Sequence record: MZ726792.1
Reading direction: 5' to 3' (one strand)
Length of the DNA: 64,000 nt
DNA from: Escherichia phage vB_EcoM_ASO1B
Part shown: positions 5,061 through 63,739 of the stretch, piece by piece
How the letters are laid out: each line of letters begins with the position of its first letter
How positions within the stretch are numbered: position 1 is the stretch's first letter
Notes under the pieces: generated by a model
Seen by the model: the letters and a program-made list of their open reading frames with translations, nothing else
Told to the model about the DNA's origin: nothing
Databases searched by the model: none
Made by a program: the position numbers and the translations under genes

Positions 5061-5136
5061 GTGGCCTTATCATAAATGGTAATGACCCATGCTGTGAACA
5101 TGGTCTATACGGGTTCAAATCCCGTAGGTCACCCCA
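5061..5136 (+). tRNA. tRNA-His (anticodon GTG)
   Basis: D-stem TCAT/ATGA, perfect anticodon stem CCATG/CATGG with loop CTGTGAA, T-loop TTCAAAT, CCA. Confidence 0.7.
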
Positions 5137-5141
5137 ATTTA

Positions 5142-5218
5142 TAGTCCAAGTAGCTTATATGGTTAAAGCGCGTGTCTGAAAAACATGAGAAGAGGGTTCA
5201 AATCCCACTGGACTACCA
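5142..5218 (+). tRNA. tRNA-Phe (anticodon GAA)
   Basis: Perfect 7-bp acceptor TAGTCCA/TGGACTA, anticodon loop CTGAAAA, T-loop TTCAAAT; 5' end and D-stem register uncertain. Confidence 0.55.
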
Positions 5219-5234
5219 ATTTCAAAGGTGCTTA

Positions 5235-5969
5235 ATGAAAGAGATGACAGAACAAGGTAAGGAGATTTTTAATCTCTTAAAAACCGGTAAAGGGTTTTCT
5301 AACCCACTTATTACTGGTGCAGCAGTTCTCGGTGGAACCGTAGCTGCCTCTACATCACTTGTAAGCTCTATTAGTTCTGTAACAGACCCTACAATGCAGG
5401 AGAAACTTGTTGCTGCTGGACTTACAACAGTCCTTCTAAACAGCTTTACAACAAGCCTTACAAGCACTACAGCAACTACTAAGACCCTGACAGACTACGG
5501 TCAAAAGTCTATTGATGAGTTTTCATCACGTATGCAGGTAGCAAAGGGATATTCCAATGTTATGAGTGCAGCAGGAGAACAAGTTGGTTGTACACCGTTC
5601 AGTGGTATTATGGGTGTTGCTACAGAATATGGTCAAAAAGCTATTGATACAATTAACAGTACACTAGAGAGTGTTAACGATGTATTAAGTGACTTACAAG
5701 ACGCTATTGATGAGGGTCTTGATACTATTTCTGATTTAGCTAATCAGGCTGTTAGTAAGATTAATGAAGGTATTTCAAAGATTACAGCTTATGCAGATGA
5801 AGTTGTGCAGATGATTGAAGAAGAAGCTGCCCTTATTGCAGAGTACCTTAAAACGAATATCAATGGGTTCTTAGCAGGTATCTTACCAGACTGGTTTGAC
5901 GATGCCTGTAAAACTGGTGTAATTGACACTATTGCAACACCAGAAATGAAGAACGCATTACAGAAATAA
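5235..5969 (+). CDS. hypothetical Ser/Thr/Ala-rich protein (245 aa)
   Basis: ORF in track; start moved to ATG 5235 (AAAGGTG ribosome-binding site) because the track start at 5172 lies inside tRNA-Phe. Confidence 0.55.
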   Translation: MKEMTEQGKEIFNLLKTGKGFSNPLITGAAVLGGTVAASTSLVSSISSVTDPTMQEKLVAAGLTTVLLNSFTTSLTSTTATTKTLTDYGQKSIDEFSSRMQVAKGYSNVMSAAGEQVGCTPFSGIMGVATEYGQKAIDTINSTLESVNDVLSDLQDAIDEGLDTISDLANQAVSKINEGISKITAYADEVVQMIEEEAALIAEYLKTNINGFLAGILPDWFDDACKTGVIDTIATPEMKNALQK

Positions 5970-14342: not shown

Positions 14343-14740
14343 GACTCTTAAACAGACACAGCTTTGTAGTAAAGCGTAAAGTCTCTGAAGACGGTTATTA
14401 TAATGATGATGGTGATTGGGTAGCTTCACAAGATGTTGTAGAGGTTAACTGTAAAGGTAATATCCAGCCATATATCAAAGGTTCTGTAAAGAATGGTACA
14501 CAGATTGCTTTACCGGAAGGTATTAGGCTTACCGATACAAGAATCCTGTATACCACATATAAACTTAGAACTTCAGATGATGTAGAGTGGAATGAGTCTG
14601 ACATTGTTATGATTGATGGTCATGAGTATGAAGTATTTATGACTATGGATTGGTCACAGCAATTAGCCCATACGTCCCATTATGAATATATCATTATTAG
14701 AAGGGATAAAATGAATGCAGTTAGAAACAGCAGAACTTGA
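14339..14740 (+). CDS. hypothetical protein (133 aa), likely head-tail joining
   Basis: ORF in track; translationally coupled to neighbours. Confidence 0.45.
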   Translation: MRLLNRHSFVVKRKVSEDGYYNDDGDWVASQDVVEVNCKGNIQPYIKGSVKNGTQIALPEGIRLTDTRILYTTYKLRTSDDVEWNESDIVMIDGHEYEVFMTMDWSQQLAHTSHYEYIIIRRDKMNAVRNSRT

Positions 14741-15314
14741 AAAAGGTCTAGTTAGAACCTTAGTGGATGTTATTGGTCACAGACTAGCTCGTGATAAGAA
14801 TAATAGACCAAATGTAATTAGAGCTTACCCTTCTGATAACTCAAATGACAAAGGTTTAAAACCTGACCAGCCATTTATTACCGTATATTGTCAAGATGCT
14901 GCAACACCTTATGGTTGGGTTCTTGATAAGTTTGTTGAGGATGATGTAGTTTGCTACAGAATTGCTTTTCAGATTCCTGTATTAATTACGGTGAATGGTA
15001 AAGGTGCTCACAGTATTATGCTTGAGCTTAAACAACGATTAGAGATGAGTTCAGTCAGAGATTTAATCCTTGAAGAAACAGGAGCTACAGTACTGGACAC
15101 TGGAGCTATCCCGAATGACTATACTTATCTCAATACAGATTTCGAAAATTCTGCACCTCTTGTTGTAACTCTTGTAAAAAACTCAGTCCTGAAGGATGAA
15201 CGTGGAAGTATTATTGAGCGTGTCATTGTTGATGGTGAGTTGGTTTATGAAGAAGGACAAGAGCCACCAGAATATACTATCCATCTAGATGTAGACTCCA
15301 AAGGGGTAAAATAA
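14715..15314 (+). CDS. hypothetical protein (199 aa), possibly tail completion
   Basis: ORF in track immediately upstream of the putative sheath gene. Confidence 0.45.
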   Translation: MQLETAELEKGLVRTLVDVIGHRLARDKNNRPNVIRAYPSDNSNDKGLKPDQPFITVYCQDAATPYGWVLDKFVEDDVVCYRIAFQIPVLITVNGKGAHSIMLELKQRLEMSSVRDLILEETGATVLDTGAIPNDYTYLNTDFENSAPLVVTLVKNSVLKDERGSIIERVIVDGELVYEEGQEPPEYTIHLDVDSKGVK

Positions 15315-16667
15315 ATGTGGAATCCAATTGTTAATGTAGATATTACATTGAACACCGCAGGAACTACAAGAGAAGGTTTTGGTTTGCCACTATTCTTAGC
15401 TTCAACAGATAATTTTGAAGAAAGAGTACGTGGTTACACTTCCTTAACTGAAGTTGCTGAAGATTTCGATGAAAACTCTGCTGCATATAAGGCTGCTAAA
15501 CAACTTTGGAGTCAGACTCCTAAAGTAACTCAGCTTTATATTGGTAGACGTGCTATGCAGTACACTGTATCAATTCCTGATGCCGTTACCGAAAGTACAG
15601 ACTACTCAATTACTGTAGCTGCTGGCGGTGGAATTTCTCAACCATACCAGTACACAGCACAAGATTCAGACACTGCTGAGGTAGTGTTGCAACAGTTTAA
15701 AACACAGATTGAAGCTGACCCAACAATCAAAGATAAGGTTTCTGTGAATGTAACTGGTAGCAATGGCTCTGCCACAATGATTATTACCAAAGCTGGTGAT
15801 AATGACTTTGTGAAAGTAACAACCACAGCACAGACTGTATACATTGCAAGTACAACTGCCGATACAGCATCAACTGCTCTGGCAGCTATCGAAGCTTATT
15901 CTACCGACTGGTATTTCATTGCAGCAGAAGACAGAACTCAACAGTTTGTCTTAGCAATGGCTTCTGAGATTCAGGCTCGTAAGAAAATCTTCTTTACGGC
16001 TAACTCCGATGTAACAGCCCTACAAGGTACAGAATTAGCCAGTGCAAATGATGTTCCAGCACAGCTTGCTAAGAATATGTACACTCGTACAGTTTGCTTG
16101 TGGCATCACGCAGCAGCAGAAGATTATCCAGAGATGGCATACATTGCTTATGGTGCTCCATATGATGCAGGCTCAATTGCTTGGGGTAATGCTCAGCTAA
16201 CTGGCGTAGCAGCTTCTCTACAACCATCTAATCAGAGACCTCTGACAAGTATTCAGAAGTCTGCTTTAGATGCACGTCACTGTAACTTTATTGACCTTGA
16301 TGGTGGTGTTCCAGTGGTTCGTAGAGGGATTACCTCTGGTGGGGAATGGATTGATATCATCCGTGGTGTTGACTGGTTAGAATCAGACCTGAAAACTTCT
16401 CTGAGAGACTTGCTAATTAACCAGAAGGGTGGTAAGATTACTTATGATGATACTGGTATTACTCGTATTCGTCAAGTCATTGAAACCTCTCTGCAAAGAG
16501 CAGTCAACAGAAACTTCCTGTCATCTTACACAGTTAATGTTCCTAAAGCCTCTCAAGTTGCTTTGGCAGACAAGAAAGCTCGTATCCTGAAAGATGTTAC
16601 CTTCGCAGGTATCTTAGCAGGGGCTATCTTGGATGTTGACTTGAAAGGTACAGTGGCTTACGAATAA
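15315..16667 (+). CDS. putative tail sheath protein
   Basis: 450 aa gene followed by a 148 aa tube-sized gene, chaperone pair and tape measure, the canonical contractile-tail order. Confidence 0.5.
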   Translation: MWNPIVNVDITLNTAGTTREGFGLPLFLASTDNFEERVRGYTSLTEVAEDFDENSAAYKAAKQLWSQTPKVTQLYIGRRAMQYTVSIPDAVTESTDYSITVAAGGGISQPYQYTAQDSDTAEVVLQQFKTQIEADPTIKDKVSVNVTGSNGSATMIITKAGDNDFVKVTTTAQTVYIASTTADTASTALAAIEAYSTDWYFIAAEDRTQQFVLAMASEIQARKKIFFTANSDVTALQGTELASANDVPAQLAKNMYTRTVCLWHHAAAEDYPEMAYIAYGAPYDAGSIAWGNAQLTGVAASLQPSNQRPLTSIQKSALDARHCNFIDLDGGVPVVRRGITSGGEWIDIIRGVDWLESDLKTSLRDLLINQKGGKITYDDTGITRIRQVIETSLQRAVNRNFLSSYTVNVPKASQVALADKKARILKDVTFAGILAGAILDVDLKGTVAYE

Positions 16668-17842: not shown

Positions 17843-25858
<8,016 letters not shown>

Positions 25859-33719: not shown

Positions 33720-34040
33720 TCAACAGATTTTATAGCTTATTTGGCAGATTTTTTATAAGGCTACTGCCATCCTTCCATACATCACCTTACCTTACCTCAC
33801 CTGACCTGACCTGACCCTACCTAACATTACCGTGCCACACCTCACTTAAAAACCCTCTTAAAAGACTCTTAAGTGATGTAATCGAATTTTAATGTAGCTC
33901 CGATTAACTACCCATACCTTACTCCGCCTCACCTTACCTAACCGTACCGTACCATACCTGACATAACCGTGCCTTACCTTATTAAAAGACCCTCTTTAAA
34001 GACCTTTTAAAAAGGAGCCTCCGAAGAGGCTACCTAGTCA
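33720..34040. repeat. non-coding repeat region A: degenerate ACCTNAC-type pyrimidine-rich repeats plus conserved boxes; paralogous to region B
   Basis: Shares three boxes with 35100-35465 (box 1 AAAACCCTCTTAAAAGACTCTTAAGTGATGT, box 2 TTTTAATGTAGCTCCGATTAACTACCC, box 3 TTATTAAAAGACCCTCTTTAAAGACCTTTTAAAAAGG) in different order. Confidence 0.8.
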
Positions 34041-34042
34041 AC

Positions 34043-34483
34043 TTAGAAAGGTTTTCTGCGTTGCTTGTTAATATTAGCTTTCATAGCAGCTAAGTGATTT
34101 TGCTGTTCAATCAGTCGTGAACGTTCTTGATGACTAAGTGCCATAGTGTTCACATTCTCAATCGCTTGAGTGGCTTGCTTTAAAGCACGACCAATCTTAC
34201 CAGACATTTTGCGTTTTGCAATAGTTGCTTGATGCTTAGGTTCAACCACACGATAACCAACACCCATTGAAGCAACCAGATAAATCTTCTCTTCTTTAAG
34301 AAGTTTTTCAATAAACTTTTCAAGTCGGTTTAGACGTGTAAGCGCATAAGCCTTCATTTCATCTTCGTACTTAACAATGTCACCTTGATAAGTTGGCTTC
34401 ACAATACCTAAGAAGGTGTCCATCTCAGAATGTGATACAGTGTCACCGTAACTAAACTTTGCTGCTAATGCTTTTGTATTCAT
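34043..34483 (-). CDS. hypothetical protein (146 aa, basic C-terminus) in repeat-flanked cassette
   Basis: ORF in track; followed on - strand by a hairpin (AGCCTCTTCGGAGGCT) and short T-run. Confidence 0.55.
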   Translation of the reverse strand: MNTKALAAKFSYGDTVSHSEMDTFLGIVKPTYQGDIVKYEDEMKAYALTRLNRLEKFIEKLLKEEKIYLVASMGVGYRVVEPKHQATIAKRKMSGKIGRALKQATQAIENVNTMALSHQERSRLIEQQNHLAAMKANINKQRRKPF

Positions 34484-34485
34484 AA

Positions 34486-35091
<606 letters not shown>

Positions 35092-35099
35092 TTAGTTGA

Positions 35100-35465
35100 T
35101 TGTTAAGTTGTTTGTAAAGAACCCTCAACAGAAGACTCTTTAGAAACTTGGTAGATTTTTAACGTGGCTACTACCATCCACCCATACCTCACCTCACTTA
35201 ACCTCACCCTACCACACCAGACATCACCTTACCATACAGCACCTTATTAAAAGACCCTCTTAAAGACCTTTTAAAAAGGTAAGTCTCATTTTAATGTAGC
35301 TGAGACTAACTACCCGCACTTTACCGCACCGGACCTTACCGGACCGCACATCACCGCACTAAACCAGACATCACATTACCTGACCACACCAAACCAAACA
35401 TCACATTACTTAAAAACCCTCTTAGAAGACTCTTAAGTGATGTTGGTGAGTACCCGTTGGTTTAT
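35100..35465. repeat. non-coding repeat region B (paralogue of region A, modules rearranged)
   Basis: Contains the same three conserved boxes as region A interleaved with ACC/CAC-rich degenerate repeats. Confidence 0.8.
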
Positions 35466-35506
35466 GCTGCTCAGTATACTCACCAAATTTTCTATGTCAA
35501 CAACTT

Positions 35507-36610
35507 TTATTCATAATCTCGTATAACTAACCCAACAGGGAACTGTAAAGACCCCTTACGAGTCATCTTCTGGAACTGAACCGTTAAAGGTTTCCCGATA
35601 AACTCTTCAGGATGTTCAGCAAGATACTGTTTCTTCTCGTGTGTAGTTTTCCATGAAACATCTACAAAGACGTTAGGAAGAGTCTCTACAACGAACTTAC
35701 CATGACCACGTTTATCAGTCTTTACACCAGTCACTTTAAACTCTTCAGTGTGCATCTTCTTGTGCTTAATCAAGAAGTATGAACGGTGACAACACTCATA
35801 GAAAGATTCTTCAGAGATTGAACGGTACATTGCACCTTCAAACTGAGCTTCAACCCACTTATCATGGGCTTCATCAAACTCTTCCCAAGAATTTACACGA
35901 CGAGACTTAACAGGAACAACTTTACAGCCGTCTCTGAAGTCATTCAATGGTGAAGTCTCAATAATATCTCTACGCTCAGGCCACGTCTTAGTACTGTCAC
36001 AGATATCATACCAGTAAAACTTGAGTAGATGTCGGTCAGGATTGTCTTCATTTTTAATCATGGAGACAATATCTTCTAAGTCCAACCCATGAGCATAGAT
36101 TTCACCATCAAATTCATCAACGTCTTTATGGAGCCTCAACATTGCCATAATGTCAGGTATTAGCTCAGTAGGAATTTTATAAATAGTGTTCTCACGAGAA
36201 TATGCTGTAAATACACTACCAATACTTAAGTGTCTTGAAATTCTACAACGTACACCATCCAGTTTTGGTTGAGCATCAGCAGGGAACTTCAGATACTTTG
36301 CATGACTAACCTTTGCAGCATCATGAGCAAGCTGTACACCTACCTTCTCAGTATTCTGTGCAGACTCTTTTGTGTAAGCATAACCTTTACGGTCAACTTG
36401 CTTTTTATACTTTGCAGCAACTTCAAAGAGAGCTTGCTGTTCAGCGTTACGCTCATTCTTTTTACCGATGTTTTTAGGTTCTGCTGTATACTCTTCAAAC
36501 ATCATCTTGCCATTTTCTTTACCATAGGTTGTAATAACTTTGTCACCTACAGCAACACATGACCAGATGTTAAAAGAGCCATCTTTATTTTGTTTGTACA
36601 GTATTGTCAT
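35507..36610 (-). CDS. ATP-dependent DNA ligase
   Basis: Motif I KLDGVR (adenylation lysine), DGEIY, EGAMYRS and LIKHKK-like downstream motifs. Confidence 0.75.
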   Translation of the reverse strand: MTILYKQNKDGSFNIWSCVAVGDKVITTYGKENGKMMFEEYTAEPKNIGKKNERNAEQQALFEVAAKYKKQVDRKGYAYTKESAQNTEKVGVQLAHDAAKVSHAKYLKFPADAQPKLDGVRCRISRHLSIGSVFTAYSRENTIYKIPTELIPDIMAMLRLHKDVDEFDGEIYAHGLDLEDIVSMIKNEDNPDRHLLKFYWYDICDSTKTWPERRDIIETSPLNDFRDGCKVVPVKSRRVNSWEEFDEAHDKWVEAQFEGAMYRSISEESFYECCHRSYFLIKHKKMHTEEFKVTGVKTDKRGHGKFVVETLPNVFVDVSWKTTHEKKQYLAEHPEEFIGKPLTVQFQKMTRKGSLQFPVGLVIRDYE

Positions 36611-54926: not shown

Positions 54927-57071
54927 ATGAACAAAGTACAGATTATTAAAAAGAATGGCTCACTTGAAGAACCTGATATCAAAAAAGTTTTAGCAGCAGT
55001 CACAAAGTCAGCTAACAGAGTTGGTTATAAAGAGCTTCCACCAGATGTTACTCAAGCTCTTGAGTCAGCATTTATGAGGATTCTGGTAAAGTCCACTAAG
55101 CAGAATAATTTGCTAATTTCGGTAAATGATATTCACAGTATTGTTGAGGGTGCTTTGGCAGAAGTCAATCACGAGATTTATGAGTCTTACTCAACATATA
55201 GAAATTACCGTAAAGAGGTTGCTCAAAATTGGGATGAACTCTACCAGAAGACTAAAGATACACTCTTCTTAGGTGACCGAGAAAACGCTAATTTTGACAG
55301 CAGTTTAATTTCTACAAAAGGTTCAATTATTCGTGGTTATCTGACTAAAGAAATCTTTAAACAGTACCATTTAACACCAGAGGAACTTGAAGCCATTGAA
55401 AAAGGGTTTATCTACATCCATGATTTAAGAGACCTAATTTTTGGTGGTATCAACTGTTGCCTGTTTGACATTGGTAAAGTCCTGAAAGGTGGCTTTGAAA
55501 TGTCTGGCATCGAATATTGTGAACCGAAGTCTGTACTGTCAGCCTTACAGGTTATTGGTGATGTAGTTCTTTCAGCAACTGCACAGCAATTTGGTGGCTT
55601 TACTTTAGCAGAGATTGATAAGGTACTTGTACCGTATGCTAAGAAGTCTCTACACTATCATGCTGAGAAAGCAGCATCTTATGGTATTCCTAAAGAACAT
55701 TACCACAATTATGTCATGGAGCAGCTACAGATTGAACTGACTCAGGGTTTCCAGTCACTTGAAATGAAACTAAACACTGTACCTTGTAGTCGTGGGGATT
55801 TTGCATTCACAACTTTGACATTCGGGTTACTTGACTCAGATATGTCCAATGAAGATAACCGACTGCAATACATGATTGCAAGTACTCTCCTAGATGTTCG
55901 TATGAATGGACAAGGTAAGAGCAAGAAGCCTGTTGTATTCCCTAAACTGGTTTATATTTATGACCAGAAGAGACACGATGAGAATATCTGTCAAGGCCAC
56001 CTGTACAGTAAAGCTATTGAGTGTTGCTCTAAAGCAATGTATCCAGACTTCTTAAGTGTATCTGGTCATGGTGCTGTAGCAGAGGCTTTTGAGCGTTCTG
56101 GTAAGGTTATTTCACCAATGGGTTGCAGAGCTTTCTTGTCTCCATATCTTAATGAGGATGGGGAAGAGTTCTACGTTGGTCGTGCTAACATTGGTGCTGT
56201 ATCTTTGAACTTACCAATGATTTACCAGTATTCTAAAGAGAATGGATTAGACTTCTGGACAGAACTTGATAAATATCTCGAAATGATTCGTAGCTTCCAT
56301 AAGAAACGCTACGAAATGATTGCTAATATGCCAGCAAGTTCTAACCCTCTTGCATTCACACAAGGTGGTCTGTACAAAGGAACTAAGAAACCTACTGACA
56401 AGGTTGGTTGGGATATTGTGAAGTCCTTCACAGCTTCTTTTGGTGTTACTGCGCTTGATGAGTTGTCTGTTCTTGCTGAAGGTAAACGACTTCATGAAGT
56501 TGGAAGCTATAGTTTTGCATATGATGTTCTGGCATACATCAACATGAAAACCGAAGAGTTTAAAAATGAAGATGGCTTCTTATATGCCGTCTATGGTACT
56601 CCAGCAGAATCACTATGTGGGACTCAGCTAAAACAGTTCAGAGATATGTTTGGGGTTATCAAAGGTGTTTCCGATAAGGAATACTTTACAAACAGTTTCC
56701 ATATGAATGTTGCAGCAGACATCTCGCCATTTGAGAAGCAGGACTTAGAAGAGCCATTCTTCCATATCTGTAGAGGCGGTAGAATCCAGTATGTAAGAGT
56801 AGCTAACCCAGAAAACTTAACAGCACTTAAAAGTTGTATTACAAGAGGGATGTTGAAAGGTTTCTATCAGGGGCTTAACTTTGACTTAGCAATCTGTGAA
56901 CATTGTGGTAACAGACCAAAGGCTGATGTTGAAGAATGTGAGGTTTGCCATTCACATGATATCTCTGTGATTAACAGGGTGTGTGGGTATCTTGGATGGA
57001 CTAAGATTAAAGGTGAATCCCGAATGAACGATGCAAAAATCGCTGAGATTCGTGATAGAGTCTCTATGTAA
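54927..57071 (+). CDS. nrdD: anaerobic ribonucleoside-triphosphate reductase
   Basis: C-terminal Zn ribbon CEHCG...CEVCH and glycyl-radical motif RVCGYLG; 714 aa. Confidence 0.9.
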   Translation: MNKVQIIKKNGSLEEPDIKKVLAAVTKSANRVGYKELPPDVTQALESAFMRILVKSTKQNNLLISVNDIHSIVEGALAEVNHEIYESYSTYRNYRKEVAQNWDELYQKTKDTLFLGDRENANFDSSLISTKGSIIRGYLTKEIFKQYHLTPEELEAIEKGFIYIHDLRDLIFGGINCCLFDIGKVLKGGFEMSGIEYCEPKSVLSALQVIGDVVLSATAQQFGGFTLAEIDKVLVPYAKKSLHYHAEKAASYGIPKEHYHNYVMEQLQIELTQGFQSLEMKLNTVPCSRGDFAFTTLTFGLLDSDMSNEDNRLQYMIASTLLDVRMNGQGKSKKPVVFPKLVYIYDQKRHDENICQGHLYSKAIECCSKAMYPDFLSVSGHGAVAEAFERSGKVISPMGCRAFLSPYLNEDGEEFYVGRANIGAVSLNLPMIYQYSKENGLDFWTELDKYLEMIRSFHKKRYEMIANMPASSNPLAFTQGGLYKGTKKPTDKVGWDIVKSFTASFGVTALDELSVLAEGKRLHEVGSYSFAYDVLAYINMKTEEFKNEDGFLYAVYGTPAESLCGTQLKQFRDMFGVIKGVSDKEYFTNSFHMNVAADISPFEKQDLEEPFFHICRGGRIQYVRVANPENLTALKSCITRGMLKGFYQGLNFDLAICEHCGNRPKADVEECEVCHSHDISVINRVCGYLGWTKIKGESRMNDAKIAEIRDRVSM

Positions 57072-59321: not shown

Positions 59322-59334
59322 ACAGATACTATAA

Positions 59335-59362
59335 GGGAACTGTAAAGGTTCCCTTTTATTTT
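59335..59362 (+). terminator. rho-independent terminator
   Basis: GGGAAC-TGTAAAG-GTTCCC followed by TTTTATTTT. Confidence 0.6.
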
Positions 59363-59371
59363 GGAGATGAT

Positions 59372-59887
59372 ATGTATCTGTCAAACCTAAAACGTTCTGC
59401 TGCAATGTCAGTTCTAAGACTCAGCTTTGATGAGCGTCAAGAGTTTATAGACTCCCACAAATATGACCCTTCAAATTCTAATCACATGGTTCTTTGGAAT
59501 CGTGATAACTTCCGTGAAAGAGCACTTGTCCGTTATTACCCACACTACACAATAGATAACCTGTATGAATGGTGTGTTGTGAAGAACACCATTGCAACAC
59601 TGAACAATCTTTGCAGGTATACGGGTAAGCAAACATTTACATTAGGTCATCACAAACCTGTTACAAAAGGTGGTGAACATCACTGTGCAAACTGGTTTAT
59701 CCAAACTAAAACTGATAACCAGAAGCAAGGAGATAGCCTCCTAAGTATCCCCAAGATGACCTATGAAGAGCAAGAGAAATATATCAAAAATAATATGCCA
59801 GATGTGCTTGACAACAACTATACAGATTTGGCAATATCTCTCCTGTTGAAGTTCGAGACAGTTTATAGGGCAACTTATAATGGCTAA
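59372..59887 (+). CDS. putative HNH-family nuclease (171 aa)
   Basis: LGHHKPVTKGGEHHCANWFIQTKTDNQKQG resembles an HNH core. Confidence 0.4.
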   Translation: MYLSNLKRSAAMSVLRLSFDERQEFIDSHKYDPSNSNHMVLWNRDNFRERALVRYYPHYTIDNLYEWCVVKNTIATLNNLCRYTGKQTFTLGHHKPVTKGGEHHCANWFIQTKTDNQKQGDSLLSIPKMTYEEQEKYIKNNMPDVLDNNYTDLAISLLLKFETVYRATYNG

Positions 59888-60158
59888 AGAAAAGTGGGAG
59901 ATTTTACCATTAGTCAGTGAAGGAGGTAATGGTTGTGAAATGTACATGATACGTGGTCATGTTCCAGAGCCAATTGCACTTGAGATGGTAAACAACTTTA
60001 CAGATGGTTCTTACAAAGACTTAGGCGAACCAACTGTCAAGCAACAATGGGTAAAGCCTGTACCAGACAGCACAGGTAACTGTAGTGTACTTTACCACGT
60101 TGTAGACCCTGTAAAATGCAAATCTGCAATGGCAGTAACAAACGTAACTTTTGATTGA
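59880..60158 (+). CDS. hypothetical protein (92 aa)
   Basis: ORF in track. Confidence 0.45.
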   Translation: MAKEKWEILPLVSEGGNGCEMYMIRGHVPEPIALEMVNNFTDGSYKDLGEPTVKQQWVKPVPDSTGNCSVLYHVVDPVKCKSAMAVTNVTFD

Positions 60159-60169
60159 GAGAGAAAACT

Positions 60170-61051
60170 ATGAAAACATCTATCCGTGTCACAATTCATT
60201 CACCGACTAAAGGAACTCATGAAGAAGAGTTTAACATCATCCAATTCCCTTCTGGTGAGATTGGTGGCCACTTTTCACAAGAGCTTGTTGATTTTACTGC
60301 TTATGCAGCATCATCTATTAACAATGTGGTTATGATTGTAAAGGGTTATGACAAAGACACACTGTTTGCTGTGGCACTGGCTAAAGAAGCAATTGACGAT
60401 TTAGTTCCTCATGATTATGCCCTGAAGACTGTCATTTTTTACTACTTGCCAAATGCACGATACGACCGTCACATGTTTAAAGGCGACGCAGCAGCTTTAA
60501 AGGTTTTTGCTAAACAGGTAAATGCAATGGGATTTGGTGCAGTCTGTGCAGTTGACCCTCACAGTTACGTTCCAGATAACCTGTTTAACTGCTTCCAGAG
60601 TATTCCTCAAAAGGAGATTGCAGTCCACTATGCAAATGACCCACTGGTTGATTACTTAGTAGCCCCAGATGCAGGTGCTGCTAAGAAGGTTGCAGAGACC
60701 GCTAAAGAGGTGGGTAAACCATATATCACAATGTCTAAAGTACGCAACCTTAAGACTGGTGAAATTACTGGTATGCGAATCCTTGATGATGTTGATTTGA
60801 CAGATAAAACCGTCATGATTCTGGATGATATCTGTGATGGTGGTCGAACCTTCATAGAAGCAGCGAAACATCTTCGTGAAGCAGGTGCAAAACGTGTGGA
60901 ACTTTATGTAACACATGGTATCTTCTCTAAAGATGTTGAAAACCTTCTTGACAATGGTATCGACCATATTTACACTACAAACTCTTTAGGTGAAGCTAAA
61001 GACCGTGGCTTAACACATTATAGTCAAGTTACTGTAGCAAATTTGGATTAG
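60170..61051 (+). CDS. prs: ribose-phosphate pyrophosphokinase (PRPP synthetase)
   Basis: PRPP-binding motif VMILDDICDGGRT; start set at ATG 60170. Confidence 0.8.
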   Translation: MKTSIRVTIHSPTKGTHEEEFNIIQFPSGEIGGHFSQELVDFTAYAASSINNVVMIVKGYDKDTLFAVALAKEAIDDLVPHDYALKTVIFYYLPNARYDRHMFKGDAAALKVFAKQVNAMGFGAVCAVDPHSYVPDNLFNCFQSIPQKEIAVHYANDPLVDYLVAPDAGAAKKVAETAKEVGKPYITMSKVRNLKTGEITGMRILDDVDLTDKTVMILDDICDGGRTFIEAAKHLREAGAKRVELYVTHGIFSKDVENLLDNGIDHIYTTNSLGEAKDRGLTHYSQVTVANLD

Positions 61052-61059
61052 GTATTAAA

Positions 61060-61551
61060 ATGGATAAGGGTTACTTCGAAAAATACCTAATATACGAACC
61101 AGAGACAGGTTTACTAATTTGGAAAGTAACCCTTTGCAATACCGCTATTGCTGGTAACGTTGCTGGCACAAGGTCTAAGAAGGGTTATATCCAAGTTCAG
61201 ATAAATAAGAAAAGGTACTATGCGCATAATATCGCATGGATTCTATCTGGAGGTGATATACCAAGTGGATATGAGATAGACCACATAGACCTTGACAAAA
61301 CAAATAATAGGCTGGAAAACTTAAGACTGAGTACAAAGTCACAAAACCAAAGGAATAGAGGTCTACAAAAGAACAATAAAACTGGCGTGAAGGGCGTAAG
61401 TGTGTGTCCACAGACAGGTCTTTATAAGGCAAGGGTGATGCTTTATCATAAAGAATACTTTTGCGGAAGATTTAAAACGCTAGAAGAAGCTAAAGAAGCT
61501 GTAATTAGAAAACGAATAGAACTTCATGGTAAGTTTGCAAGACATAACTAA
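61060..61551 (+). CDS. HNH homing endonuclease with AP2-like C-terminal domain (paralogue 3)
   Basis: YEPETGLLIW, IDHIDLDKTNNRLENLR, C-terminal GVKGVSVCPQTGLYKARV; inserted between prs and the NAMPT gene. Confidence 0.8.
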   Translation: MDKGYFEKYLIYEPETGLLIWKVTLCNTAIAGNVAGTRSKKGYIQVQINKKRYYAHNIAWILSGGDIPSGYEIDHIDLDKTNNRLENLRLSTKSQNQRNRGLQKNNKTGVKGVSVCPQTGLYKARVMLYHKEYFCGRFKTLEEAKEAVIRKRIELHGKFARHN

Positions 61552-61568
61552 TAGAGAGAGACATTAAT

Positions 61569-63350
61569 ATGAGTAAATCACTTTACGCAGTACCAGCAGG
61601 TCTTAATGCAGATGCTTACAAGTCATCACATATATATCAGTATCCAGATGCTACACAGTATCTTATGCTGAACCTGACACCACGTAGCGACAAATGGTTT
61701 AACAGCCCCTTAGCAATTGACGGTGTAGTAGCTTTTGGTATTCAACGTTTTGTTAAAGATTACTTGATAGACCACTGGAATGCCACTTTCTTTGAACGTG
61801 ATAAAAAAGAAGCAATTGACGAAATCTTAGAAGTCATGAATGGTGTTCTGGGTAAAGATGCTATAGGTCGAGAGCATTGGGAAGCACTTCACGACTTAGG
61901 CTATCTACCAGTTGAAGTATACGCTGTAGAAGAAGGCACAGTTGTCCCTATGCGTGTTCCGATGATTGTTTTCCAGAACACTGTTTCAGGTTTCCATTGG
62001 GTAGCAGGTTATCTGGAAGATGCTTTCTCTGCTGAGATTTGGAAGGCTTGTACCATTGCAACTATTGCATTGCACTACAAACGTATCTGTAAGAAGTGGG
62101 CTGACCTTACTTGTGACAACGACTTGCATTTACCTTATCAGTGCCATGACTTTGCTATGCGTGGTATGTCCGGCTTTACTGATGACGCATTTAACGCTGT
62201 AGGCCACTTAACCAGCTTTAAAGGAACTGATAGCTTTCCTGCTGTGTATACGGCTAAACGAATCTATGGACAGTCCTACCCAATCTCTGATATTGGTAGC
62301 TCTGTACCAGCCACTGAGCACTCTGTAATGTGTGCAAACATTGCTTGGGAAGGTGGTAATGAGTTGATTGAAGAAGAAAGACGCTTTAAAGGTGAGTTAC
62401 AAACCTTCCGTCGTTTCTTAACAGAAACTTACCCAACGGGTATTGCAAGTATTGTTTCAGATACTTATAACTTCTGGAGAACTGTGTCAGTTATATTACC
62501 AGAACTTCGTAAAGAGATTATGGAACGTGATGGTAAACTGGTAATTCGTCCTGACTCTGGAGACCCTGTACATATTGTCACAGGATACAAAGCAATCCAT
62601 TTAGAGTGTGCTAAAAAGGCTTATTACGAACACCTAAGTAAGCTGGAAGCCAGCGACACAATGTTGAATGCTGTTCTGAACATGAAGCTTGAAAACATCA
62701 ATTATGGTATTGCTGGATGGCTACTGTCAGAAGGCTACGAAATGGTTGTTGACAGAGAAGACTTTGAAGTTGCTGATACAGTGCTGTTGAAAAACGCTTA
62801 TATGGTTGGTTCTGCAAACGTTGTAACACGTCCTGTAGCTGAGATTGATGGAGCTATTAAGACACTGTACAACATCTTTGGAGGAACTATTAACTCTAAA
62901 GGTTTTAAGGTACTGGATGAGCACATTGGCCTTATCTATGGCGACTCTATCACGCTGGAACGTGCAAACGAAATCCTGAAGCGTCTGTATGAAATGGGTT
63001 TTGCAAGCTCTAACGTAGTGTTTGGCGTAGGCTCTTACACTTACCAGTACATGACTCGTGACACCTTTGCATTTGCTGTTAAAGCAACTCTTGCAAGCAT
63101 TGGTGGTAAAGAGATTATGCTTGCAAAAGACCCTAAAACAGATAGTGGTGTTAAGAAGTCTGCTTTTGGTGGTGTAGCACCTATGTGGGATGGTGATAAG
63201 TTGAAAGCTGTAGATGGCTATGGATTCCAGAGCTTTGCAGATGTACTTGAACATCCAGCTTGTGCTTTACGTTTAGTCTTTAGCGACTCTGAGCAGTTCG
63301 GTTACACAACGCTTGGTGATATTCGAAATAATATTGACAAGCAGCTTTAA
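61569..63350 (+). CDS. nadV: nicotinamide phosphoribosyltransferase (NAMPT/NadV family)
   Basis: CHDFAMRGMSGFTDDAFNAVGHLTSFKGTDS core matches the NAMPT active-site region; 593 aa. Confidence 0.75.
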   Translation: MSKSLYAVPAGLNADAYKSSHIYQYPDATQYLMLNLTPRSDKWFNSPLAIDGVVAFGIQRFVKDYLIDHWNATFFERDKKEAIDEILEVMNGVLGKDAIGREHWEALHDLGYLPVEVYAVEEGTVVPMRVPMIVFQNTVSGFHWVAGYLEDAFSAEIWKACTIATIALHYKRICKKWADLTCDNDLHLPYQCHDFAMRGMSGFTDDAFNAVGHLTSFKGTDSFPAVYTAKRIYGQSYPISDIGSSVPATEHSVMCANIAWEGGNELIEEERRFKGELQTFRRFLTETYPTGIASIVSDTYNFWRTVSVILPELRKEIMERDGKLVIRPDSGDPVHIVTGYKAIHLECAKKAYYEHLSKLEASDTMLNAVLNMKLENINYGIAGWLLSEGYEMVVDREDFEVADTVLLKNAYMVGSANVVTRPVAEIDGAIKTLYNIFGGTINSKGFKVLDEHIGLIYGDSITLERANEILKRLYEMGFASSNVVFGVGSYTYQYMTRDTFAFAVKATLASIGGKEIMLAKDPKTDSGVKKSAFGGVAPMWDGDKLKAVDGYGFQSFADVLEHPACALRLVFSDSEQFGYTTLGDIRNNIDKQL

Positions 63351-63365
63351 AAGTATATGATAAGA

Positions 63366-63386
63366 GGCTCCTACGGGAGCCTTTTT
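63366..63386 (+). terminator. rho-independent terminator after nadV
   Basis: GGCTCC-TACG-GGAGCC followed by TTTTT. Confidence 0.65.
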
Positions 63387-63403
63387 AATTTCTGGAGAAA
63401 ACT

Positions 63404-63739
63404 ATGAAAATCAAAGAAATGAACATCAACATTGTCTTAGAAGAACGTTGGGAGAACATCAAGAAGACTGAAGATGGTCATAAGTTCCTCAACAAAATTT
63501 TAGTAGCAGCTAAAGAAGAACTGACTGGAAAGGTTGCAGCAGCAATCACAATAAAGGTTTGTGTAAAAGGTCTTCCACAACATCACCAGTTTGCGCTTGA
63601 CGAGTTTAAAAAAAGCTTCTACAATCCAAACAAACAGATGCTTGAAAGTAACTTTGCAGTATCTACAAGTATCGTTCATGACAGAAGCTTTATCCTTTAC
63701 AAAAACATGAGAGGTGAGTCATGCAAGCATATTGGATAG
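63404..63739 (+). CDS. hypothetical protein (111 aa)
   Basis: ORF in track. Confidence 0.45.
   Translation: MKIKEMNINIVLEERWENIKKTEDGHKFLNKILVAAKEELTGKVAAAITIKVCVKGLPQHHQFALDEFKKSFYNPNKQMLESNFAVSTSIVHDRSFILYKNMRGESCKHIG

Follow-up and report, generated by a model that had tools for sequence, protein, structure and literature searches.

Escherichia phage vB_EcoM_ASO1B (MZ726792.1) carries a prs-like gene and a NAMPT-like gene with an HNH gene between them, within the 64,000-nucleotide stretch that we analysed (the window), and the locus raises the question of the route by which the two enzymes would supply NAD+. A first-pass annotation assigned PRPP synthesis to the Prs-like protein and NMN synthesis to the NAMPT-like protein, leaving a pathway without an NMN adenylyltransferase (NMNAT). 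The three ORFs were borne out by an ORF check of the window (Table 1), and the region from 60170 to 63350 is 100% identical to that of Escherichia phage vB_EcoM_ASO1A, a Felixounavirus. The genes, here named adps, HNH and namat, are on one strand, separated by spacers of 8 and 17 nt, in a unit bounded by two terminators. Two small genes directly upstream of adps, encoding 171 and 92 aa, occur in the same order in Bas63 (0077, 0078), FelixO1 and CHB7, and Pfam and NCBIfam searches gave no matches for either.

Table 1 Features of the adps-namat locus, in window positions; aa numbers refer to the encoded protein
Feature	Position	Strand	Details
Terminator-like hairpin, upstream bound of the transcription unit	59333..59355	+	The ASO1A record annotates a rho-independent terminator here (record 82946-82978)
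Two small conserved genes directly upstream of adps, tightly packed	59372..60158	+	171 aa, PHROG 3500; 92 aa, PHROG 4726
adps, predicted PRPS-like ADP-ribose pyrophosphokinase, 293 aa	60170..61051	+	ATG start; RBS GAGAGAGA at 60158-60165
Mosaic 5' part of adps, Suspvirus/CHB7-type allele	60170..60700	+	93-100% nt identity to that type; ~70-85% to FelixO1 and Bas63 (sliding identity)
Adps DDICD motif, aa 219-223, which contacts the distal ribose and begins the PP loop	60824..60838	+	Alignment; roles from PMC13586617
Predicted free-standing HNH homing-endonuclease gene, 163 aa, in the adps-namat spacer	61060..61551	+	HNH_3 E 8.7e-20; weak AP2-like domain; PHROG 99 E 3e-68
namat, predicted nicotinamide ADP-ribose transferase, 593 aa	61569..63350	+	RBS GAGAGAGA at 61553-61560
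Namat selectivity-clamp loop (SCL), RSDKWFNSP, aa 39-47	61683..61709	+	K42-W43 same as in Bas63
Catalytic histidine H251 (ATEHSVM), equivalent to SPbetaL1 H245	62319..62321	+	Alignment
Namat insertion 1 relative to SPbetaL1 Namat, about aa 258-272, IAWEGGNELIEEERR	62340..62384	+	Length variable in the clade
RPDSG motif (R327, D329), ribose-binding catalytic residues	62547..62561	+	Alignment
Namat insertion 2, about aa 340-427, ~85-aa alpha/beta subdomain of Ounavirinae-type Namat	62586..62849	+	After the RPDSG strand
Namat selectivity-clamp helix signature GSYTYQYMTRD, aa 488-498	63030..63062	+	Motif match
Terminator-like hairpin just 3' of the namat stop codon	63362..63385	+	Hairpin seen in sequence

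The NAD+ reconstitution pathway 1 (NARP1) was discovered in genes 79-80 of Bas63 (Bas63_0079 and Bas63_0080) by Osterman et al. (bioRxiv 10.1101/2024.02.11.579819), who tested and rejected the PRPP/NMN route predicted for that pair from Pfam. In that study, Bas63 overcame SIR2-HerA even in a pncC nadR double-deletion host, a 79-80 deletion phage was used on SIR2-HerA hosts to show rescue, and ADPR-PP was detected in Bas63-infected cells by in vivo metabolomics. The purified Prs homologue of SPbetaL1 pyrophosphorylated ADPR and formed no Prs-type product, and the SPbetaL1 NAMPT homologue converted ADPR-PP and nicotinamide directly into NAD+ (bioRxiv 10.1101/2024.02.11.579819). Activity of the ICP1 Adps has also been shown in vitro (PMC13586617).

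The window Namat is identical to Bas63_0080 at 579 of 593 positions (98%), with equal length and no gaps, and the window Adps is identical to Bas63_0079 at 226 of 293 positions (77%). The system is therefore already known: NARP1 has been published, and the ASO1B pair is a near-identical copy of it. Immediately beside namat, on one strand, lies a PRPS-like gene that identity places in the phage Adps clade, and the encoded proteins retain the Adps catalytic and acceptor residues, the Namat core, the clamp helix and the clamp loop. The operon is thus very probably the NARP1 of a Felix O1-like phage, in which Adps and Namat would rebuild NAD+ directly. We infer the enzyme activities and the anti-defence phenotype of the ASO1B pair from these identities and conserved residues. 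On the same grounds, the first-pass annotation was right to see a phage NAD+-regeneration module directed at NAD+-depleting defences, and its chemistry was wrong, the PRPP/NMN route having been rejected for the Bas63 orthologues and the window proteins carrying the residues of Adps and Namat.

In the proposed mechanism, a host NADase of the SIR2, TIR or SEFIR type would cut NAD+ into ADP-ribose and nicotinamide. [quoted passage not shown] With NAD+ regenerated directly by Namat, there would be no NMN intermediate and no need for an NMNAT, so that the missing NMNAT is expected under NARP1 chemistry and is not a gap. Like the first-pass annotation, which recognised no NMNAT in the window, we found none: the ASO1A record has 190 features and no NMNAT annotation, and when the six-frame ORFs of the window and of ASO1A 1-25400 were searched by phmmer with NadR and NadD of E. 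coli, the best E was 0.7, in a single-sequence search of low sensitivity that remote homologues could escape.

The Adps product belongs to PHROG 619 (E 5e-97), and its Pfam matches are weak and confined to the C-terminal Pribosyltran and Pribosyl_synth domains. Among Prs models it passes the broad TIGR01251 subfamily alone (125.5 against a cut-off of 113) and none of the equivalog models (for example, 106.5 against 296), and its best PDB Prs match has an E of 3.5e-17. By the equivalog models and the N-terminal domain, Adps would not be classed as a canonical class I PRPP synthetase. Identity to the ICP1 and SPbetaL1 Adps proteins is about 31-36%. In the alignment, residues R87, H121, D161, K185, D212, D213, D216 and F221 of ICP1 Adps, whose roles have been described (PMC13586617), correspond to R97, H131, D167, K190, D219, D220, D223 and F228. 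Of the aromatic residues that contact the adenines of ADPR and ATP in ICP1 Adps, F221 is retained, and some others lack an aromatic counterpart in the alignment, which is weak at the N terminus: F92 aligns with M102 (with F103 adjacent), F18 with T16 (F in Bas63) and F223 with E230.

Namat belongs to PHROG 448 (E 1.7e-201) and matches Pfam NAPRTase and NAMPT_N. Its best PDB match in both sequence and fold is the SPbetaL1 Namat (9w5w/9w5x), ahead of NadV and NAMPT, with a sequence E of 4e-129 and, for an AF2 model of pLDDT 92.9, a Foldseek E of 5e-54 and a TM of 0.95. Core residues F189, R192, D215, H245, R306 and D308 of SPbetaL1 Namat are F195, R198, D221, H251, R327 and D329 here and are invariant in a 32-sequence alignment; mutants of SPbetaL1 R306 are inactive (bioRxiv 10.1101/2024.02.11.579819; PMC12774641). 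The remaining core and clamp residues are likewise all kept (D15, Y17, K42-W43, A248, G458, D459, G488, S489, Y490, Y494, T496, R497 and D498), and the possibility, raised in the first-pass annotation, that NAMPT active-site residues might be missing does not hold. The clamp helix has been defined as GS-X-phi-X-phi-X-phi-TRD, where X is aromatic, and the clamp loop as one in which adenine is stacked either by Arg or by the residue next after a Lys/Tyr (PMC12774641). Adenine stacking is ascribed to Arg40 in SPbetaL1 Namat, whereas K42-W43 occupies the clamp loop here.

These features bear on the alternative of salvage through NMN, in which the prs-like product would make PRPP, the NAMPT-like product would make NMN, and either the host NadR/PncC route or an unrecognised phage NMNAT would finish the synthesis, a NARP2-like logic without the second enzyme. 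The Pfam, PHROG and NCBIfam names all agree with it, and in vitro SPbetaL1 Namat can still convert PRPP into NMN, about half as fast as human Nampt does (PMC12774641). However, the anti-defence effect of Bas63 does not need host pncC or nadR, and the SPbetaL1 "Prs" lacks the Prs-type product while ADPR-PP is seen in vivo (bioRxiv 10.1101/2024.02.11.579819). The window Namat has the adenine clamp that Nampt lacks, Adps falls below every Prs equivalog model, and no NMNAT was found in the ASO1A annotation or the NadR/NadD search. We regard this alternative as extremely improbable. Within NARP1, PRPP-dependent NMN synthesis by Namat may make a side contribution, because the enzyme keeps that reaction in vitro (PMC12774641).

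The HNH gene had been described as splitting the NAD+ genes. It does interrupt the two-gene operon, but no gene is split: it is intergenic, and both flanking ORFs and the namat RBS are intact. It encodes an HNH domain, lies between genes and is variably present in genomes that are otherwise syntenic, all of which mark it as a probable free-standing homing-endonuclease gene. Of 258 related phage records, 61 carry it, FelixO1 among them; the FelixO1 copy is 99.6% identical, and identity to FelixO1 peaks (97-100%) in a tract with the HNH gene at its centre. Bas63 and CHB7 lack the gene and have in its place, as a precise replacement, a 27-nt spacer hairpin, GGGGCUU-AAAGCCCC (-11.5 and -14 kcal/mol in Bas63 and CHB7, respectively), which is missing here. 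The HNH gene would thus be a selfish, variably present element that displaced a hairpin between the two cistrons.

Such an insertion might have cost the operon a regulatory hairpin and broken the coupling between its two genes, leaving a NARP1 copy that is poorly expressed or decaying. The lost hairpin and the 0.5 kb foreign ORF that now separates adps from namat would fit this. However, both ORFs are intact and namat keeps its RBS, the three genes follow one another closely on one strand between the two terminators, and the 61 records in which the HNH arrangement persists span several hosts and countries. The whole namat gene, insertion included, is under purifying selection, with dN/dS of 0.01-0.12 against the HNH-carrying phages FelixO1 and ESCO50. 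We therefore consider an impaired operon very unlikely.

Counting somewhat against the NARP1 assignment, the N-terminal ~180 aa of Adps represent an allele other than that of Bas63, with about 65-70% identity in that part. Adps is 97% identical to CHB7 gp6. Two adps allele groups are apparent in tblastn, one of 154 records at ≥90% identity and one of 94 records at 60-80%.

Compared with known systems, the locus is closest to NARP1 of Bas63 (Escherichia phage JohannRWettstein), with which it shares genus, gene order, neighbours, Namat insertions and clamp residues. It differs in that Bas63 has a 45-nt spacer with the hairpin instead of the HNH gene, the other allele in the N-terminal half of Adps, an additional ORF of 114 aa following namat, and an nrdD that carries an intron/HEG. 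The SPbetaL1 Adps and Namat (9w5w, 9w5x; PMC12774641) and the ICP1 Adps (PMC13586617) have the same fold, catalytic residues, clamp motif and adps-namat adjacency, whereas their identity to the window proteins is 47% for Namat and in the low-to-mid thirties (see above) for Adps. NARP2, as in the KVP40 NadV and NatV (Nampt and a bifunctional NMNAT/Nudix), also uses a NAMPT-fold enzyme and nicotinamide in phage NAD+ supply against depletion. In contrast to the present locus, where the partner is Adps, Namat has a clamp and no NMNAT was found, NARP2 proceeds from PRPP via NMN and needs an NMNAT.

NARP1-AP (bioRxiv 10.64898/2026.01.28.702374) likewise has three genes with an extra one between adps and namat, but its middle gene encodes the Macro-domain ADPR-1''-P phosphatase Adpp and not an HNH endonuclease. 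No Macro-domain phosphatase was found in the ASO1B operon, the middle gene being HNH_3/AP2, and four extra ORFs beside adps in phage ESCO50, considered as Macro phosphatase candidates, had no Pfam matches. Lacking Adpp, the operon should by published logic not counter aRES. The closest cellular relatives found are NrtR-controlled prs-nadV operons of bacteria (Rodionov et al. 2008, PMC2330246). In one example, from Klebsiella michiganensis (locus L015), the Prs-like protein has 289 aa and matches the C-terminal two-thirds of Adps at 48% identity, and a 496-aa protein containing GSYTYQYNTRD reaches 48% identity to Namat over a best local alignment that spans 56% of the query. In such operons ADPR releases NrtR from DNA. 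Unlike the phage locus, they lie on chromosomes, a divergent NrtR gene regulates them, and they have neither the insertion subdomain nor an HNH gene.

Automatic annotation (Pfam, PHROG, NCBIfam and GenBank) still misnames both enzymes, and a careful reader was led to the same wrong chemistry. The correct assignment predicts the host range of Felix O1-like phages used in therapy and typing, which should resist NAD+ depletion of the SIR2, TIR and SEFIR types and, by the published logic, not aRES.

At 593 aa, Namat is about 100 aa longer than SPbetaL1 Namat (491 aa), HdNadV and mammalian NAMPT, and the first-pass annotation correctly suspected an extra domain. Start mis-assignment, which it had allowed for, is excluded: Namat aligns from residue 1 and end to end with Bas63_0080 and dozens of 593-aa relatives, and the extra residues are internal. 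They form no terminal extension and consist of insertions, mainly the ~85-aa alpha/beta subdomain at about aa 340-427 (insertion 2), which takes the place of a short loop, GDPEAKDELVRKG, in SPbetaL1 Namat. Domain analysis of the extension, as had been proposed, gave a confidently modelled, autonomously folded subdomain for which fold and Pfam searches found no relative, and our literature search found no description of the Felixounavirus Namat insertion. An intein or intron as the source was rejected, the insertion being in frame, without intein termini, integrated as a subdomain in the model and present in the functional Bas63 protein.

The subdomain could be a functional add-on that docks the Adps hexamer and channels labile ADPR-PP, acts as a regulatory module or shields Namat from a host inhibitor or countermeasure, in which case the Felix O1 type of NARP1 would represent a mechanistic variant of the pathway; we consider this possible but rather unlikely. 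Its confident fold, the purifying selection on it, its lack of a fold relative and the conservation of its length across a clade down to 46% identity all favour a function, as does the fact that SPbetaL1 Namat, without the subdomain, does not bind Adps stably. Two homologues (P0102 and P0112) carry an unrelated insertion of similar size at the same site, which points to a site where added modules are tolerated or favoured. However, the SPbetaL1 and ICP1 systems function with Namats of ~490 aa that have neither this subdomain nor the 15-aa insertion, and the subdomain may be mere structural decoration. Felix-type Namat also occurs with both Adps N-terminal alleles, and this speaks against close co-adaptation at an interface with Adps. 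The conserved subdomain belongs to the Bas63-type Namat, the one used for in vivo work. In another homologue (P0064), in which an Adps-Namat fusion was considered and rejected, an intein-like insert lies at RPD/SG, between the D and the S of that motif.

The two nucleotide-metabolism genes of the window belong to a known system and are nearly the type specimen of NAD+ reconstitution pathway 1 (NARP1), whose discovery rests on genes 79-80 of the Felixounavirus Bas63 (JohannRWettstein, MZ501086.1) (Osterman et al., bioRxiv 10.1101/2024.02.11.579819). The window NAMPT-like protein matches Bas63_0080 at 579 of 593 positions without gaps, and the Prs-like protein matches Bas63_0079 at 226 of 293. 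Osterman et al. began with the Pfam-based expectation that Prs forms PRPP and Nampt forms NMN, and then refuted it: the purified SPbetaL1 "Prs" homolog (Adps) gave no Prs-type product and converted ADPR and ATP to ADPR-pyrophosphate (ADPR-PP), and the NAMPT homolog (Namat) formed NAD+ from ADPR-PP and nicotinamide. In the same work, ADPR-PP was seen only in infected, defense-carrying cells, deletion of genes 79-80 rendered Bas63 sensitive to SIR2-HerA, and escape by wild-type Bas63 persisted when the host carried neither pncC nor nadR. The first-pass annotation had assigned the PRPP-to-NMN route to the window genes, which is wrong; its guess of a counter-defense purpose is right.

The features that separate Adps and Namat from Prs and Nampt have been defined structurally (PMC12774641, PMC13586617). 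Alignment with the SPbetaL1 and ICP1 proteins places window Adps R97, H131, D167, K190, D219, D220, and D223 at ICP1 R87, H121, D161, K185, D212, D213, and D216, and the Namat catalytic core (F195, R198, D221, H251, R327, D329) is kept relative to SPbetaL1. The Namat clamp helix, GSYTYQYMTRD, fits the signature GS-X-phi-X-phi-X-phi-TRD, which is absent from Nampt, and the clamp loop contains K-W, the pair reported for Bas63 Namat (PMC12774641). A Namat crystal structure was the top PDB match by sequence and fold, above Haemophilus NadV and mammalian NAMPT. Together with the Bas63, SPbetaL1, and ICP1 orthologs, these conserved residues predict Adps and Namat activities for the window proteins.

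NARP1 needs no NMNAT. The earlier statement that none is recognizable holds: the annotation of the related phage vB_EcoM_ASO1A (MZ726791.1; 190 features) lists no NMNAT, Nudix, or Macro gene, and E. coli NadR and NadD queries gave a best E of 0.7 in a low-sensitivity search of six-frame ORFs from the window and the first 25.4 kb of ASO1A. The extended variant NARP1-AP includes a Macro-domain phosphatase, whereas this enzyme is absent from the window operon.

Among NCBIfam models, Adps clears the broad ribP_PPkin subfamily model by a narrow margin but falls short of all Prs equivalogs, Namat scores as a "nicotinate phosphoribosyltransferase," and no Adps- or Namat-specific model was reported for either protein. 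These matches show how annotation of the two enzymes goes astray, and the persistence of this mis-annotation is one of three residual points of interest.

Another is a conserved Namat insertion subdomain. The extra length of approximately 100 residues, previously suspected to be an additional domain, is internal and comprises three differences from SPbetaL1 Namat (491 aa): a clamp loop longer by 4 residues, an insertion of ∼15 aa (aa ∼258-272) after the catalytic His segment, and a folded insertion of ∼85 aa (aa ∼340-427) between the RPDSGDPVHIVTG strand/turn and the helix IKTLYNIFGG. AlphaFold2 (32-sequence alignment) gave a pLDDT of 92.9 overall and 93-97 across the ∼85-aa insertion, a beta-alpha-alpha-alpha-beta-beta-alpha-beta-alpha unit that still folds when modeled alone (pLDDT 92.5, pTM 0.82). 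By inference from topology, the insertion would lie on the catalytic face, because the beta-alpha connection that holds it follows the R327/D329 strand. It is under purifying selection (dN/dS of 0.02-0.06 within the genus and 0.23 against Suspvirus CHB7) and diverges faster than the core (50% versus 75-89% amino acid identity). The long form (590-610 aa) is common to Felixounavirus and Suspvirus proteins and to Ounavirinae-like proteins of Yersinia, Pectobacterium, and other phages, at identities as low as 46%. A literature search found no comment on the Felixounavirus insertion, although Bas63 Namat was modeled in published work. In the homologs P0102 and P0112, the same site (alignment columns ∼380-470) holds an insertion that is similar in size (∼75 aa; …DTPHG…KFEGKYYKLVIEVEYNRYDKQYY…) but unrelated, which suggests that the site after the RPDSG strand is an insertion-tolerant hotspot.

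Five same-strand ORFs in the window ORF listing, enclosed by two terminator-like hairpins, form the gene block; ORF, Pfam, and PHROG analyses agree with the first-pass coordinates and family-level identities.

Features of the NARP1 gene block in the window
Feature	Position	Size	Matches
Terminator-like hairpin, left boundary	59333-59355		
Small conserved gene	59372-59887	171 aa	PHROG 3500
Small conserved gene	59880-60158		PHROG 4726
prs-like gene (adps)	60170-61051 (start ATG 60170)	293 aa	
HNH gene	61060-61551	163 aa	Pfam HNH_3 (E 8.7e-20), weak AP2-like tail; PHROG 99
NAMPT-like gene (namat)	61569-63350	593 aa	Pfam NAPRTase + NAMPT_N; PHROG 448 (E 1.7e-201)
Terminator-like hairpin, right boundary	63362-63385		

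The adps gene most plausibly starts at the tabulated ATG, which is preceded by GAGAGAGA and is the annotated start in related records; a TTG start at 60155, given by the ORF lister, is less likely. The 171-aa ORF weakly matches the HNH-endonuclease PHROG 2214 (E 2e-6), contains a HHKPVTKGGEHH stretch, and could represent an atypical HNH protein or a degenerate one. Window positions 60000-63500 are 100% identical to ASO1A, a Felixounavirus, and 90-95% identical to ∼180 other Felix O1-like phages of Escherichia, Salmonella, Shigella, and Citrobacter. The exact ASO1A match spans only ∼38200 to 64000; over 1-38200 the two are not collinear, the offset shifting stepwise by ∼1.6 kb, and exact 60-mer matches are missing from several stretches (e.g., 14401-16400 and 33801-35600). 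This partial matching points to a sibling or mosaic genome as the source, not ASO1A itself. Variable cargo flanks the locus among relatives: phage ESCO50 has four additional small ORFs (131-154 aa; locus 369-2095) directly upstream of adps, with no matches in a Pfam scan, and Bas63 (Bas63_0081; locus 20509-20853) and D4 have a 114-aa ORF after namat that is absent from the window. These are candidate accessory or anti-defense genes.

The first ∼550 nt of adps (60170-60700) are 93-100% identical to CHB7 and ∼70-85% identical to Felix O1 and Bas63, and the 3' end, like the HNH gene, resembles Felix O1. Window Adps is a recombinant in which the N-terminal domain (hexamer core, adenine contacts) has been exchanged. 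Both Adps alleles are widespread beside Felix-type Namat, which speaks against an Adps-Namat interface that is tightly allele-specific.

The third point, of lesser interest, is the HNH element and the accompanying loss of a hairpin. In HNH-less Bas63 and CHB7, the adps stop precedes TTTATA-GGGGCTT(A/G)AAAGCCCC-ATTTT, after which comes the namat RBS GAGAGAGA; the conserved hairpin, GGGGCUU(A/G)AAAGCCCC followed by AUUUU (Bas63 locus 18629-18673, CHB7 locus 4383-4427; folding energies -11.5 and -14 kcal/mol), looks like a terminator or attenuator. The window has the 492-nt HNH ORF in place of this ∼27-nt segment, with spacers of 8 and 17 nt and the RBS retained. The HNH gene occurs in 61 of 258 related records (megablast), and the window copy is 99.6% identical to that of Felix O1. 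Identity to Felix O1 is 97-100% over ∼60710-61600 and falls to 69-85% on the left and 90-97% on the right, a profile that fits homing with flanking co-conversion but that recombination alone could also have made. The mosaic adps arose either as a consequence of such homing and co-conversion or independently of it.

Homing endonucleases are numerous in Felixounavirus and their positions vary, as several cases indicate: nrdD is uninterrupted in the window (54927-57071, 714 aa), its annotation in Bas63 joins two segments around a homing-endonuclease ORF, and an HNH gene overlaps its 3' end in CHB7, and HNH and GIY-YIG genes adjoin DNA polymerase and exonuclease in the ASO1A record. The Namat family is itself a repeated target of mobile elements: the 843-aa Nampt/Namat homolog P0064 has a ∼340-aa intein-like insert exactly within the catalytic RPD|SG motif (...VVRPD CYDDKTEILTEKGW ... 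VVISGN SGTPEDIICG), and Namat is divided between PHROGs 16547 and 15800, which contain its N- and C-terminal halves, respectively. PHROG 12872 (547 positions) matches Adps at 35-224 and the Namat C-terminal half at 236-534, which hints that some phages naturally encode fused or chimeric Adps-Namat proteins.

The closest cellular relatives found lie in a chromosomal locus of Klebsiella michiganensis (contig 2211-5491), where nrtR (NUDIX + WHD_NrtR) is divergent from a gene for a 289-aa Prs-like protein, 48% identical to the C-terminal two-thirds of window Adps, followed by one for a 496-aa Namat-like protein with GSYTYQYNTRD. This is the "prs-nadV" operon, the ADPR-released repressor of which puzzled Rodionov et al. 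2008 (PMC2330246); under a NARP1 reading, the pathway's substrate would itself induce the operon.
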